The notes beneath the pieces were generated by a model. The model did not search any database. It had not been told where the DNA came from and saw nothing but the letters and a program-made list of their open reading frames with translations. The position numbers and the translations under genes are program-made. Source: Bdellovibrionota bacterium (GTDB lineage: Bacteria > Bdellovibrionota_C > UBA2361). From it: 18,501 bases of DNA. The first letter of the stretch is position 1; each line of letters begins with the position of its first letter. This document shows positions 1 through 15,958 of this stretch, piece by piece. The DNA is taken from NCBI GenBank assembly GCA_044352465.1, contig JBILDU010000061.1, positions 1-18,501 on the forward strand. Reading direction: 5' to 3'.

Positions 1-101
1 AGTTTTTTCACTCCCGCGGAGTGAAAAACTAACTCAGGACTAGTGGTGAGCATAAATTCTATTACCTTGCAGGTGAAAGAATTTAATGGTCGAACCACTA
101 G
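1..101. repeat. CTAG-bounded palindromic repeat doublet (REP/MITE-like), copy 1, truncated by the window start
   Basis: Bases 1-101 are the exact reverse complement of 10222-10322 (checked base by base). Contains hairpin AGTTTTTTCACTCC-cgc-GGAGTGAAAAACT (1-30) and a CTAG...CTAG bounded palindrome (40-101). Confidence 0.95.
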
Positions 102-4010: not shown

Positions 4011-4262
4011 GTGCGATTGATTCGAATTAGGCACGACGTCAGCTCCCTCGTCTCCCGTCCGGTAACTTTTTCACCTGCCAGAGGTTTCGGGGGCGGGACA
4101 CGAGTACGGCGAGGATGGTCGCGCAGCTTGCCGCGGGCGAAGTCTCGACCGGCTCTTCTATGAAAGAACTTTCTGTTCTGATGGCGAGATACTCAGACCG
4201 ACCAGAGCACGGAGCTAAACTCACACTAACTCCCGGCGAGGCAAAGGGGCTGGCCTATCAGG

Positions 4263-9775: not shown

Positions 9776-10183
9776 ATGATCTTCAGTCGAAAAGCTAAAT
9801 ACAAGCTCCCGAAGTTTCCAGGAAGTGTGATCCCGGCGTTTCGACAACTGTGCCGGGAGATTCCGGTCGATCAAGTTGACGCGGTGCGGGCGGAGGTTGA
9901 GCGGTGCATCGGAACCCTGCGGGAGCGGGCGCCTGAGCGGCCCAACCTCAACTTGCCGCTGGCGGAAGAGATTGCGGCGCGGTGTTTTGTGTTGCTCGAT
10001 CGCTTCCCGGACTATGATGTCGAGAAGCGCAAGCTTGTTATGGGAGCCGTCTCTTACTTCGTTGTTGATGGTGATGGGGCCGAGGACGACTCCTTTGCGA
10101 CGGGCTTCGATGATGACGCTCGGGTGATGAATTATGTCCTTCAGCAGGTAGGGATCGAGGACCAGTTTATCGATCTCCGTTAG
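9776..10183 (+). CDS. YkvA/DUF1232-like small protein
   Basis: C-terminal GAVSYFV..GD...D.....GFDDDARV resembles the DUF1232 Y....DxxPD...GxxDD motif. Confidence 0.7.
   Translation: MIFSRKAKYKLPKFPGSVIPAFRQLCREIPVDQVDAVRAEVERCIGTLRERAPERPNLNLPLAEEIAARCFVLLDRFPDYDVEKRKLVMGAVSYFVVDGDGAEDDSFATGFDDDARVMNYVLQQVGIEDQFIDLR
10014..10183 (+). repeat. 170-bp direct repeat, copy 1 (3' end of the DUF1232-like gene)
   Basis: Ungapped match to 13558-13727 at 159/170 positions (manual alignment). Confidence 0.95.
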
Positions 10184-10221
10184 TAGCTTTCGTTGCGCTA
10201 TCTCCTCTTTCTGTGGCCATC

Positions 10222-10340
10222 CTAGTGGTTCGACCATTAAATTCTTTCACCTGCAAGGTAATAGAATTTATGCTCACCACTAGTCCTGAGTTAGTTTTTC
10301 ACTCCGCGGGAGTGAAAAAACTTATTGGTCGAAGGACTAG
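10222..10340. repeat. CTAG-bounded palindromic repeat doublet, copy 2: unit A 10222-10283 and inverted unit B 10280-10340 sharing one CTAG
   Basis: A = CTAGTGGTTCGACCA...CTCACCACTAG; rc(B) = CTAGTCCTTCGACCA...CTCAGGACTAG. Inverted copy at 1-101. Confidence 0.92.
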
Positions 10341-10365
10341 CCGCGCTCATCTCCCGCCCGAGAAA

Positions 10366-10511
10366 GCTCCCGCAGGTAAAAAACTTTCTGAAAACGACAC
10401 TAGCCCGCATTGCCCATACTCAAATGGGCAATGCGGTTTGAAAGCGAGGTGAGGCCGACACTGTGTCGGTGGCTGTCGTGCTTCGACAAGAAAGTTTTTT
10501 CACCTGAGAGC
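10366..10511. repeat. Nested inverted-repeat (multibranch) element
   Basis: 10373-10389 pairs with 10489-10506 (one bulged C); 10394-10399 pairs with 10474-10479; perfect 13-bp hairpin 10405-10436; 6-bp hairpin 10455-10469. Confidence 0.75.
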
Positions 10512-10667: not shown

Positions 10668-12077
10668 ATGTGGCGGTCCCGCGCTTCGTCTGTCTTCTTG
10701 TCGTTCGTCTTTGCTCTGATCGTCCACTCGTTGTTCCCCGGTAGCGGCGCCTGCGCGCCGACAGTAAAGGAGGGGGAGGGAGGTGCAGTACGAGCGATCG
10801 CTCAGGAGGCGTGGCTGTATGCTTATGCGCCGTTACAAGGTTATCAGACCCTCTACAACCAGGCGTTGAACAAAGACTTCCCCGGGTACGTAGGCGGGTT
10901 CAACCGTTTTCGACACTATTCGCGGCTCTCGACCCCTACCGACACCGATATCGTAACGCCAAACAACGACACGCCCTACTCATGGGCGTGGCTCGATCTC
11001 CGTGCTGAACCGATCGTCCTCTCGCTCCCCGCCGTACCCGCACCCCGGTATTACGTGAACCAGTGGTTTGATTTGTATACCCACAACTTTGCCTACACCG
11101 GGGTTCGCGCGACCGGGCGGGGCGCGGGCAACTACCTCTTCGCCGGTCCAAACTGGAAGGGTACCGTGCCGCCCAACATCACCGCGGTCTTCCGGGCTGA
11201 AACCGAGATTGTGGGCACCCTCACCCGAACCCAGTTAGACGGCGAGGACGATCGTGCCGCGATGCAAAAGATTCAAGCGCAGTATCTTCTTACTCCGTTG
11301 TCGGCGTTCCTCGGCGATCCACCGCCACCACCTTTACCCCCGATCACCCTTCCTGCGTGGGATAAGACGGTGGGAGAGGGAATCGGATTTATCGGGTATC
11401 TGAACGCGCTCCTCCCCTATATGCCAACCGTGCCCTCTGAAAATGAGGCCTTCGCGCGTTTCGCTACCATCGGCATCGGCGCGGGTAAGCCGTTCGATGC
11501 AGCGGCGTTACCACCCGATATGCGGGCCGCCATCGAAGCCGGCGTGGCTGACGCTACCAAGCTGCTTCAGGACACCGCCCTCGTGCAAAAAGACTCGAAG
11601 CAACTCTTTGGAACCCGCAGCAAGCTCGGAGAAAATTACATTATGCGCCGTTCCCTCGGAGCGATGCTCGGGATTTACGGAAACTCTAAAGAGGAAGCGA
11701 TCTACGGGAGCCAACAGACCGATCCCGCTGGCAAGGTGCTCGATGGAAACAAGCGGTGGGTACTCCGCTTCGAAGCGGGGCAGCTTCCGCCGGTAGATAT
11801 TTTTTGGTCGATCACCATGTATAGACTTCCGGAGCGATTCCTCGTCGAGAATAGGCTGAACAGATATTCGCTGGGCGACCGGTCACCGAGCCTAAAACCC
11901 GGGGCTGATGGTTCGCTTGAGATCTATCTGCAGAGCGAGGAGCCGAGCCCCGAGAAGATCGGCAACTGGCTCCCCACTCCACCGGGGCCCTTTTTCTTTG
12001 TAGCCCGCTTTTACGGACCCCAAGCTCCCCTCATTAACGGTACGTGGACCTTACCTTTGTTAAAGGAGATCCGATGA
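10668..12077 (+). CDS. Exported DUF1254/DUF1214 domain protein
   Basis: IVTPNNDTPYSWAWLDLRAEP, RYYV.Q..DLYTHNF, GNYLFAGPNW.G, FWSITMY, NWLP.P.GPF...R.YGP; N-terminal signal. Confidence 0.9.
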   Translation: MWRSRASSVFLSFVFALIVHSLFPGSGACAPTVKEGEGGAVRAIAQEAWLYAYAPLQGYQTLYNQALNKDFPGYVGGFNRFRHYSRLSTPTDTDIVTPNNDTPYSWAWLDLRAEPIVLSLPAVPAPRYYVNQWFDLYTHNFAYTGVRATGRGAGNYLFAGPNWKGTVPPNITAVFRAETEIVGTLTRTQLDGEDDRAAMQKIQAQYLLTPLSAFLGDPPPPPLPPITLPAWDKTVGEGIGFIGYLNALLPYMPTVPSENEAFARFATIGIGAGKPFDAAALPPDMRAAIEAGVADATKLLQDTALVQKDSKQLFGTRSKLGENYIMRRSLGAMLGIYGNSKEEAIYGSQQTDPAGKVLDGNKRWVLRFEAGQLPPVDIFWSITMYRLPERFLVENRLNRYSLGDRSPSLKPGADGSLEIYLQSEEPSPEKIGNWLPTPPGPFFFVARFYGPQAPLINGTWTLPLLKEIR

Positions 12078-13543
12078 AAAATAACTACTTCTCCCTCCTC
12101 CATGTAGTCTTTACGGCTGGGGTGCTCGCGCACACGCTTCTGGACACGAAGCCGGCTTCGGCTCAAACCGTCGACACAAGGATCGGGAAGCTCCAACTTG
12201 AGAACGGTTACCCGTCGGCCGAGGCGGTCGAAAAGCTCTACACCGAGATGGATTTCCAGCGCGCAACGCAGATCTATCTATGGGGGCTTCCTGCTGTCGG
12301 CTTCTACGGACTACGGCAGGCACACCGAAGAAACTTCGGCGCTCAAGACGGCGAGGTCGTGTTGTACCAAACTCCGAAAGATAAGGCCGGGATGTTGACC
12401 CCGAACCTTACGACACTGTACGCCTTCACCTTTTGGAACATGGCCGAGCAGGGTCCTCTCGTGGTGGAAGTCCCAGCTGGCGCCACCGCCGGTGGTGTGG
12501 ACGACATCTGGCAACGCCCTGTCATCGACACCGGCCAAACCGGCCCCGATAAGGGCCAAGGGGGAAAGTATTTGATCCTGCCCCCTGGTGCGCCCGACTT
12601 GAATCCACCGGGGTATTTTGTCGCTCGATCCGCCACGAATCAAATCTGGTTCGGGACGCGGGGGCTCTCCTCCGAGATCGCCGACGCCGAGGTGACCGTG
12701 CGGAAACACCGCATCTATGGATGGAACGATCGCGCCACCCCTAGAACCACGAAGTACATCCCGGTCGGTGGACGCGCGTGGGCCTCGTGGCAACCAAACG
12801 ACATCTCGTATTTCGAGCAGCTGAAGGAGATCTTAGACCCGGAGCCGCTGGAGCGCCACAACGGATATTTCGCTGCGATGCTCCGCTCACTCGGGATCGA
12901 AAGGGGAAAACCCTTTGAGCCAGATGAGAAACGTCGAAAGGTGCTTGGAGAAGCCGCTGTGACCGGGGAATTGATGGCGCGAGCGAATGCGTTTGCCAAA
13001 CGCTACCCCGACTCGACGGTCTTTGCCGGCACTCACTGGGAGTACGCCAATATGGTCGAACTCGATCAACAGACGAAAGACTTCTCTCAGCTCGACGAAC
13101 GCGCCTCATGGTTTTACGAGGCGATCGGCAATACCCTCGGCATGCAAGGACGAGTTGTTGGGTTCGGTCAGGTGTATCTTGAAACCGCGCGGGACAGATC
13201 TGGCAAATGGCTCGATGGTGCCAAGAGCTACCGACTCCGCGTTCCGCCGAATGCCCCGGTGAAGCAGTTCTGGTCCGTCACGTTGTATGAGAATGTGACA
13301 CGCGCACCGCTCCAATCGCCGGGGGGCACCGCGGATATCTCCTCGCGTAAGTCCGGCCTTGAGATCAATCCGGATGGTTCGGTCGATCTATTCTTTGGTC
13401 CGCGTAAACCATCTGGCTCACCGACGAACTTCGTTCAGACAGTCCCGGGTAAGGGCTGGTTCGTGTATTTCCGACTCTACGCCCCGACAGAGCCGTACTT
13501 TAATAAGACGTGGGCGCTGCCCGATATCGAGGAGATTCGCTAA
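12074..13543 (+). CDS. Exported DUF1254/DUF1214 domain protein (second subtype)
   Basis: DFQRATQIYLWGLP, LTPNLTTLY, GPDKGQGGKYLILPP, FWSVTLYE, NPDGSVDLFFGP, FRLYAP. ATG at 12074 overlaps the upstream TGA and has an AAGGAG RBS. Confidence 0.9.
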   Translation: MKNNYFSLLHVVFTAGVLAHTLLDTKPASAQTVDTRIGKLQLENGYPSAEAVEKLYTEMDFQRATQIYLWGLPAVGFYGLRQAHRRNFGAQDGEVVLYQTPKDKAGMLTPNLTTLYAFTFWNMAEQGPLVVEVPAGATAGGVDDIWQRPVIDTGQTGPDKGQGGKYLILPPGAPDLNPPGYFVARSATNQIWFGTRGLSSEIADAEVTVRKHRIYGWNDRATPRTTKYIPVGGRAWASWQPNDISYFEQLKEILDPEPLERHNGYFAAMLRSLGIERGKPFEPDEKRRKVLGEAAVTGELMARANAFAKRYPDSTVFAGTHWEYANMVELDQQTKDFSQLDERASWFYEAIGNTLGMQGRVVGFGQVYLETARDRSGKWLDGAKSYRLRVPPNAPVKQFWSVTLYENVTRAPLQSPGGTADISSRKSGLEINPDGSVDLFFGPRKPSGSPTNFVQTVPGKGWFVYFRLYAPTEPYFNKTWALPDIEEIR

Positions 13544-13557
13544 AAGTGATGTCGTCG

Positions 13558-13727
13558 ATGACGTCCAGAAGCGGAAGCTTGTTATGGGAGCCGTTTCTTA
13601 CTTCGTTGTTGATGGTGATGGGGCTGAGGACGACTCCTTTGCGACGGGCTTCGATGATGACGCTCGCGTGATGAATTATGTCCTTCAGCAAGTAGGGGTC
13701 GAGGATCAGTTTATCGTTCTCCGCTAG
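13558..13727 (+). pseudogene. Orphan 3' fragment of the DUF1232-like gene (170-bp direct repeat, copy 2)
   Basis: Encodes DVQKRKLVMGAVSYFVVDGDGAEDDSFATGFDDDARVMNYVLQQVGVEDQFIVLR*. Lacks the first ~80 codons and begins 14 bp after the upstream stop. Confidence 0.88.
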
Positions 13728-15184: not shown

Positions 15185-15958
15185 TTACCCGTTGGCTGAC
15201 GCCGCTGGGGTCTTCTTCAAGATGCGGTCGATGATCATCTGGAAGTGGGACTGCGGATAGGCACCTTTCACTGCGACGCCGTTCACGAAAAAGCCGGGGG
15301 TTCCTTGGATCCCGTTCTTCTCCGCAATCGCCATGTCGGCCTTGACCGCGGCTTCAGCTGCTTCCGAGTTCATGTCTTTCTTGAACTTGTCCATATCGAG
15401 ACCGAGCTTTTTGGCGGTGGCCTCATAGAAATCCGCGCCAAGGCTCTTTTGGTTCTCAAACAGGGCGTCGTGCATCTCCCAGAACTTCCCTTGCTGCTGT
15501 GCTGCATATGAGGCCTTCGCCGCAGGCATCGCCTCGGGGTGGAAGGGGAGCGGGAGGTGCTTAAAAACGAGCTTGATGTCGTTTGGGTTCGCCTTCATGA
15601 GGTCGCTCATCGTTGAATTCCCTTTGGTACAGAATGGGCACTGAAAGTCAGAGAACTCAACGATTGTAATCTTGGCGTTCGCCGGACCTTTCACCGGGCT
15701 TTTGCCGATATCGACCGAGACAGGGTTCTTAAACTGCTCCTCGAGCTGGGCCTTGGCCATCTCATCTTGCTTCTTGCGGGCATCTTCTTGGCGCTTCTTG
15801 ACGTAGTTCTCCATAGCCTTACCAACCATATTTTGGCCGGCTTCAGAGTTGAGATACTTCTCCATCTGGGTCTCAAACGTTTTATCGGAGACCTCTGCGA
15901 TGGCTACCCCAGCACCGAGCAGGAGAATGGTGCCCAACGCAACAACACGATTTACCAT
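15185..15958 (-). CDS. DsbA family thiol-disulfide oxidoreductase (BdbD/Com1/ScsC-like) with N-terminal helical extension
   Basis: EFSDFQCPFC active site; FKHLPL; QGKFWEMHDALF; cis-Pro loop GIQGTPGFFVNG; signal peptide. Confidence 0.92.
   Translation of the reverse strand: MVNRVVALGTILLLGAGVAIAEVSDKTFETQMEKYLNSEAGQNMVGKAMENYVKKRQEDARKKQDEMAKAQLEEQFKNPVSVDIGKSPVKGPANAKITIVEFSDFQCPFCTKGNSTMSDLMKANPNDIKLVFKHLPLPFHPEAMPAAKASYAAQQQGKFWEMHDALFENQKSLGADFYEATAKKLGLDMDKFKKDMNSEAAEAAVKADMAIAEKNGIQGTPGFFVNGVAVKGAYPQSHFQMIIDRILKKTPAASANG

Follow-up and report, generated by a model that had tools for sequence, protein, structure and literature searches.

What kind of element is formed by the two CTAG-bounded hairpins of this contig, and which enzyme moves it? 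The window analysed here is the whole stretch of 18,501 nucleotides from the genome of a Bdellovibrionota bacterium (G000). The first-pass annotation had described a family of hairpin repeats of about 61 bp, bounded by CTAG and carrying compensatory base swaps. The CTAG-bounded hairpins and the swaps stand, the monomer as the unit does not: the mobile unit is the whole doublet of units A and B at 10222-10340, which measures 119 bp including both outer CTAG and corresponds to a net insertion of 115 bp. Collecting the copies genome-wide by BLAST, as had been proposed, gave 21 doublets in G000 with 96.6-100% identity, 19 of them full length and 2 cut by contig ends. Their flanking DNA is unrelated; the doublet is dispersed, multicopy and devoid of a transposase gene. 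No A-only or B-only hairpin was found in G000, all 21 copies being doublets; a 22nd BLAST row, on contig C7, consists of a single B-type end of 28 nt that lacks the hairpin.

In the region of the doublet, CTAG occurs at 10222, 10280, 10337 and 10400. The tetramer is rare in G000 (0.59 of expectation), and the spacings between neighbouring CTAG in this genome peak only at 57, 58 and 115. The boundaries are also seen in four assemblies of lake metagenomes, in which the doublet is covered at a depth of hundreds to thousands compared with 5-10 for the flanks, and in which loose read ends cluster at 10221-10225 and 10337-10341. The CTAG at 10400 had been counted as a member of the series, but it belongs to an older repeat; 10337-10403, tried as a third unit, folds no better than shuffled sequences (z 0.84 and 0.38) and was rejected. 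The coordinates of the features are compiled in Table 1.

Table 1. Coordinates, strand and supporting observations for the doublet and its surroundings in the window.
Feature	Position	Strand	Observation
Second copy of the doublet	1..101	-	100% identical, cut by contig start
Left target tetramer CTAG	10222..10225	.	CTAG at 46/52 distinct left junctions
Left 25-bp terminal inverted repeat, outer arm of unit A	10226..10250	+	24/29 against the right end, CTAG included
Hairpin unit A, basal TGG/CCA	10226..10279	- (TGAG...CGAA strand)	Folding, covariation, alignment
Central CTAG common to both units	10280..10283	.	CTAG in 10/18 families
Hairpin unit B, basal TCC/GGA	10284..10336	+ (TGAG...CGAA strand)	Folding, covariation, alignment
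Right 25-bp terminal inverted repeat, outer arm of unit B	10312..10336	-	Best IS630 end match 22/25
Right target tetramer CTAG	10337..10340	.	CTAG at 49/52 distinct right junctions
Older degenerate repeat, right part, receiver of the insertion	10341..10403	-	Terminates with an old IS630-type end plus the CTAG at 10400

The central CTAG is not needed for movement. The other 8 of the 18 families have CGAG, CAG, CTA, CAAG or CGCG in its place, and in several copies of the congener G001 it is mutated, more often than the neighbouring bases, which is in line with the avoidance of CTAG by the host. A T follows the right CTAG in 12 of 18 cases in G000, with a weaker excess at other sites (12/33).

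The receiver of the insertion is itself a repeat. Where the window reads CTAG-doublet-CTAG, its paralogs read CTGG, TTGG or ATAG, and these paralogous empty sites hold one tetramer. At one G000 site orthologous to a doublet site of G001 (contig C118, anchored on the left side) a single CTAG stands at the matching place. The search for empty CTAG sites that had been suggested was therefore answered by paralogs and by one ortholog, but not from the same species, since four metagenome runs contained no empty site at the window locus. Old IS630-type ends are frequent in G000, with 106 occurrences compared with 13 in a reversed-genome control.

Some further features of this neighbourhood should be mentioned. 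Decayed IS630-type ends of the degenerate repeat family lie at 102-126, 4051-4075 and 10479-10503 of the window, with about 100 genome-wide, and a strong short hairpin (10405-10433, z -6.7) with related copies near other repeats directly follows the old repeat. The last 170 nt (10014-10183) of the ORF at 9776-10183 are repeated with 94% identity at 13558-13727, behind a DUF1254/DUF1214 gene pair (10668-13543). In G001 a DsbA-like gene, found at 15185-15958 in the window, lies no more than about 400 bp behind the same ORF, so the intervening block looks like a G000-specific insertion.

That the element is selected for its structure had also been proposed, and this holds. Units A and B each fold better than 200 of 200 shuffled sequences on both strands (z -4.4 to -7.3), and a comparison of A with the reverse complement of B reveals swaps of GG/CC to CC/GG and of AATTCT/AGAATT to AGTTTT/AAAACT. 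Further doublets were collected with search patterns that fixed the TCGAC/CTC/GAG/GTCGA core, so the conservation of this core is by design; the basal three bases, the unlike pairing and the symmetry of the ends were left free. The claim of covariation rests on a permutation test over 18 families, in which the basal stem pairs within the unit in 32 of 36 units, compared with a shuffled mean of 9.0 and a maximum of 20 in 20000 permutations. Structural selection of the hairpins is supported by this covariation within units. The two units of one doublet never have the same basal stem (0/18 families), although about a quarter would be expected to from the observed frequencies. In addition, the outer ends match each other at 8.6 of the 16 positions from 10 to 25, compared with 6.2 across families, a value reached in 1 of 20000 permutations. 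Together with the pairing of the basal stems within units, this reveals two overlapping constraints, the symmetry seen by a transposase and the pairing of the hairpins. The long inner stem is missing from several units and is thus not required family-wide, and the inner stems have neither a strand bias (DNA, 17 lower and 17 higher) nor a strand bias of G.U pairs.

Both units keep a mismatch, TGAG opposite CGAA, on one strand, the strand of this G.A form having been assigned from the motif and not from the inner stems. Where the pair adjoining GA/GA changes from T-A to C-G, both sides change, in 7 of 7 cases. Tandem G.A pairs prefer a pyrimidine-GA-purine context. The mismatch is predicted to form tandem sheared G.A pairs, a type of pairing that leaves DNA stems undisturbed, as stated in PMC11014236.

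Which transposase recognises the outer ends? At locus L017 an end of the doublet type directly follows the 3' fragment of an IS630 transposase gene and agrees with end B in 22 of 25 positions, with 20 consecutive identical bases (positions 9-28). L017 is a fragment of about 150 nt and not a full element, and its transposase fragment agrees at 57% over 30 aa with L032, a full element in which CTAG and perfect ends of 29 nt enclose an IS630 transposase of NF033545. A second complete element, L029, encodes an NF033545 IS630 transposase as well; of its two ends, the left one (L029:906-935) is shorter by 2 nt. The right outer end of the doublet matches L029, L032 and L309 at 16-17 of 25 positions, and the left outer end matches the ends of the same IS630 subgroup at 14-18 of 25, whereas eight ends of other IS630 elements reach only 7-13 of 25 against the doublet ends. 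Since the likeness is to one IS630 subgroup, with 22 of 25 as the best match, the doublet is most likely a MITE driven by IS630. Four relatives carry plain MITEs that have the same ends but lack the hairpins. Those of G019 (L013, L018 and L022) and G034 (L007, L012 and L021) measure about 186 and 196 bp and have long internal palindromes, and G019 contains 187 candidates of this end type.

An IS630 transposase gene was not found in the assemblies of G000 and G001, which are 95% and 78% complete, respectively. Among 11 other carrier genomes, also incomplete assemblies, one has an IS630 transposase, with different ends (9-10/25), and 21 of 91 genomes of the order have a match to DDE_3. A full IS630 element with the exact ends of the doublet was found neither in 124 genomes of the phylum nor in viral contigs, in which 15 matches were due to chance and lay in coding DNA. 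IS870 is a member of the IS630 family. CTAG specificity is reported for IS870 in PMC13630536; for IS630-family elements in general, insertion at TA with duplication of TA is described in PMC2170065, and a title in the reference list of that paper concerns CTAG targeting by IS630.

The same doublet has been active in a second species of the genus. The congener G001 has at least 60 A-B junctions, and its doublet consensus differs from that of G000 in 1 of 119 bases; alignable orthologous DNA of the two genomes is 68-81% identical. The insertion site of the window is empty in G001, and of 14 doublet sites of G001 that were tested, the 8 with an alignable flank in G000 carry no element there. From these comparisons we infer independent recent bursts in G000 and G001 after horizontal transfer; the doublet would thus have crossed recently between the two species.

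Beyond the genus, pattern scans revealed the same doublet plan in genomes titled Omnitrophota and Planctomycetales, in G109, a genome belonging to the same class as the host but to a different order, and in 42 stretches of metagenome sequence; a pattern scan of viral contigs detected none. The scan gave at least 107 stretches, many of which are chance or short REP-type matches that were excluded from the doublet counts. All loci together comprise at least 81 distinct doublets in at least 18 sequence families from several lineages, which are mutually unalignable. The units are modular, as in G095, where a single B unit is combined with several different A units, and monomers bounded by CTAG are present in G091 and G092. 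A comparison of L099 with L104, both of G092, shows a copy in which unit B has the opposite orientation, giving a head-to-tail doublet. Other single cases are a doublet located at the CTAG that terminates a different IS630 element with unrelated ends (L207:1440-1550) and a lone A-like hairpin in G019 (L006:1500-1560, 83% identical), which has compensatory changes in the inner stem and lacks CTAG ends.

Hairpins with the motif of the doublet are also found beside a gene. In G000 a 94-aa GIY-YIG gene (L237, contig C43, about 42950-43490) is followed by them; the protein matches PF01541 and UPF0213 structures weakly, and the tree is poorly resolved with respect to membership in cd10448. The hairpin cassette of L237 is duplicated, with a far end resembling the tmRNA end of L280, and close copies of L237, 86-87% identical, are present in a different family of the same order, which suggests transfer. 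The hairpin motif was present at 15 of 30 GIY loci (homologs of L237 in the order), of which L275 enters by a doubtful distant match, compared with none of 30 IS630 loci. A stricter near-gene test, in which L275 has none, found a tail-to-tail pair, 12-93 nt apart, at 15 of 58 GIY loci; L294, L383 and L389 are likely chance among its 22 labelled loci. The two hairpins are unlike in 15 of 15 pairs, and 3 are the same combination of TGG and TCC as in A and B. By their C-terminal motif, all 15 pair-flanked GIY proteins, one of them truncated, belong to one subtype; in the tree, built on few alignment columns, the hairpin-flanked proteins do not form one clade (8 changes). Some of the cassettes abut the 3' ends of tRNA or tmRNA genes, as confirmed by Rfam for L280 and L363. 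In 9 related loci Rfam recognised only tRNA or tmRNA and left the hairpin unmatched, and the window itself gave no Rfam match at E<=1, in agreement with the earlier view that the repeat is not a described family. The open-access literature, excluding the supplements of PMC11893778 and PMC3733652, contained no description of the element or of a cassette of hairpin, GIY gene and tRNA. GIY genes are not neighbours of the doublets, apart from one case at a distance of about 550 bp (L389). The hairpins of the doublet likely derive from the hairpin pair of the GIY-YIG genes, and the hairpin type common to both suggests a possible link between two separate selfish-DNA systems.

Taken together, we consider the doublet to be a non-coding, CTAG-bounded MITE that is moved in trans by an IS630 transposase and was built from a nuclease-associated hairpin pair, and we give this reading a probability of roughly 0.7. 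The 5' arm of the hairpin (T-NN-YTCGAC) fits the first nine bases of the ends of CTAG-targeting IS630 elements, so that capture would be easy, and a compact pair of hairpins with loops that absorb the rest of the IS630 end would become a transposon. The transposase would bind the two outer 25-bp ends, cut out the doublet and insert it at the TA within CTAG; the target duplication would be TA in the case of a 113-bp element or CTAG in the case of a 111-bp element. Compared with a full end, the inner arms of both units lack 3-4 nt; this shortfall would account for movement of the doublet alone in the family of the window. When the DNA is single-stranded, one hairpin per strand would contain tandem sheared G.A pairs, likely the recognition site of the nuclease, and with unlike basal stems, folding into two short hairpins would be favoured over a single long one.

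How much of this is owed to the nuclease is a matter of weighing the same observations. Tentatively, it may be an active partner in addition to IS630: an undescribed tRNA-linked GIY-YIG nuclease would recognise the G.A hairpins in single-stranded DNA, bind or nick them next to the inward-facing central tetramer and shuffle the units or help to spread them, and IS630 would do the final insertion. The doublet would then be a parasite of two enzymes, whose hairpin pair, taken from the nuclease system, acquired IS630 ends in many lineages. The exchange of units in G095 and the inverted B of G092 speak for such a role, as does the persistence of basal pairing where everything else is unalignable, although this retention could simply reflect ancestry from recent, repeated captures. 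SsnA, according to PMC11893778, cuts single-stranded DNA beside its own hairpin, but the hairpin motif described here fails the SRM consensus. A hairpin-flanked GIY gene was found in 8 of 13 genomes with doublets or monomers, and not in the other 5, compared with 12 of 89 other genomes of the order, a comparison that mixes lineages and in which the loci covered are 30 of 43 and 30 of 33 matches. That the nuclease system moves the doublet alone, in the manner of RAYT and REPINs, the likeness to IS630 ends being incidental, we regard as improbable. It would account for the failure to find an IS630 gene in G000 and G001, both of which carry a hairpin-flanked GIY gene (L237 and L280), and the doublet has the same architecture as the native hairpin pair of the GIY genes. 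It would leave aside the match of 22 of 25 positions with 20 identical bases in a row, the end-to-end symmetry at positions 10-25 and the hairpin-less MITEs with the same ends; moreover, the target of the doublet is strictly CTAG, whereas the native pairs sit at tRNA and tmRNA ends.

Selection of the hairpins as RNA, for instance as terminators or stabilisers in read-through transcripts that make insertions near gene ends tolerable, is a little less improbable but still unlikely. Seven of the 21 copies in G000 lie on TAG stop codons of ORFs of at least 100 aa, in both orientations, and with two hairpins on opposite strands one G.A hairpin would be correctly folded whichever way the element is inserted. 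However, the stop-codon sites follow from the CTAG target, a strand bias of G.U pairs and an Rfam match are both lacking, and the associated protein has the fold of a DNA nuclease; SsnA is inactive on RNA, as reported in PMC11893778. The enzymes that had been suggested at the outset have the least in their favour. RAYT-like genes are present in G000 and the doublet is REPIN-like, yet none of 10 RAYT-like loci examined is flanked by a doublet, and 4 carry another REP; the genes have their own GTAG-type REP or nothing similar beside them, and only one is on the same contig as a doublet, at a distance of 15.9 kb. As for an IS5 or IS701 transposase, G000 has no match to PF01609 or PF13546. Movement by any of these enzymes is largely refuted and very improbable. 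From the earlier view of a MITE that targets CTAG, the target remains, as is evident from the junctions in Table 1, and the mover is most likely an IS630 transposase instead.

As an IS630-moved MITE the doublet has a precedent in the RUP element of Streptococcus pneumoniae, which goes with IS630-Spn1 (PMC2229807). RUP-type MITEs, as described there, are likewise non-coding, about 110 bp long and present in many near-identical intergenic copies, and the doublet also has in common with IS630 MITEs the IS630-type terminal inverted repeats, the TA within CTAG at both ends and the frequent location at stop codons. It differs from them in its two unlike hairpins, in basal stems that pair within the unit and not end to end, in end positions 2-4 that never match (0/18) and in a plan that recurs in unalignable families of several lineages.

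The hairpins resemble, in turn, the NTS and SRM repeats of the Ssn enzymes, small GIY-YIG proteins that cut single-stranded DNA beside their own hairpin (Chenal et al. 2025, PMC11893778). Both are short repeats tied to small single-domain GIY-YIG genes, and both have a specific orientation, one side carrying an unpaired tag. Still, the SRM consensus given in PMC11893778 matches none of the 18 doublet families and none of 13 close GIY loci; the core of the doublet, TCGAC...GCTC with a mismatch inside the stem, is different, and the pair described here is mobile between IS630 ends.

With REPINs and BIMEs the doublet shares the dispersed, inverted arrangement of two unlike palindromes (Di Nocera et al. 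2013, PMC3733652), and the earlier comparison with them was apt in this respect; a preference for heterodimers is also reported for REPs in PMC3733652. Unlike GTAG and CGTC REPs, the doublet lacks a GTAG or CGTC tag and reads CTAG at its ends and centre. Its units have 30-60 nt compared with 20-40 nt in REPs, it has a fixed CTAG target on both sides and 25-bp terminal repeats, and it has no link to RAYT genes. The RAYT-like genes themselves, about 325 aa in length and accompanied by tandem arrays of the GTAG-type REP, were seen at L001 and L003 and on contigs C146 and C59 of G000, and several homologs that are broken or further diverged lie on C144, C28, C45, C96 and C38.

IS630 MITEs are ordinary elements, and their interiors are expected to drift freely. 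In the present case, two unlike hairpins with compensatory changes are retained across 18 unalignable families, the hairpin is traceable to a specific gene neighbourhood, and the doublet of the window is a clear case of a MITE burst common to two species through recent transfer. How CGTC REPs gain mobility is a question left open in PMC3733652; the doublet offers a testable route to mobility for REP-like hairpins that lack a transposase of their own. At the same time, the hairpin is a substrate prediction for many uncharacterised GIY-YIG proteins of about 90 aa that stand near the Ssn family, which is of interest for tools acting on single-stranded DNA. Should the nuclease indeed act together with IS630, then the stem, the mismatch and the inward-facing tag would define the substrate of a new subfamily of site-specific single-strand DNA nucleases.
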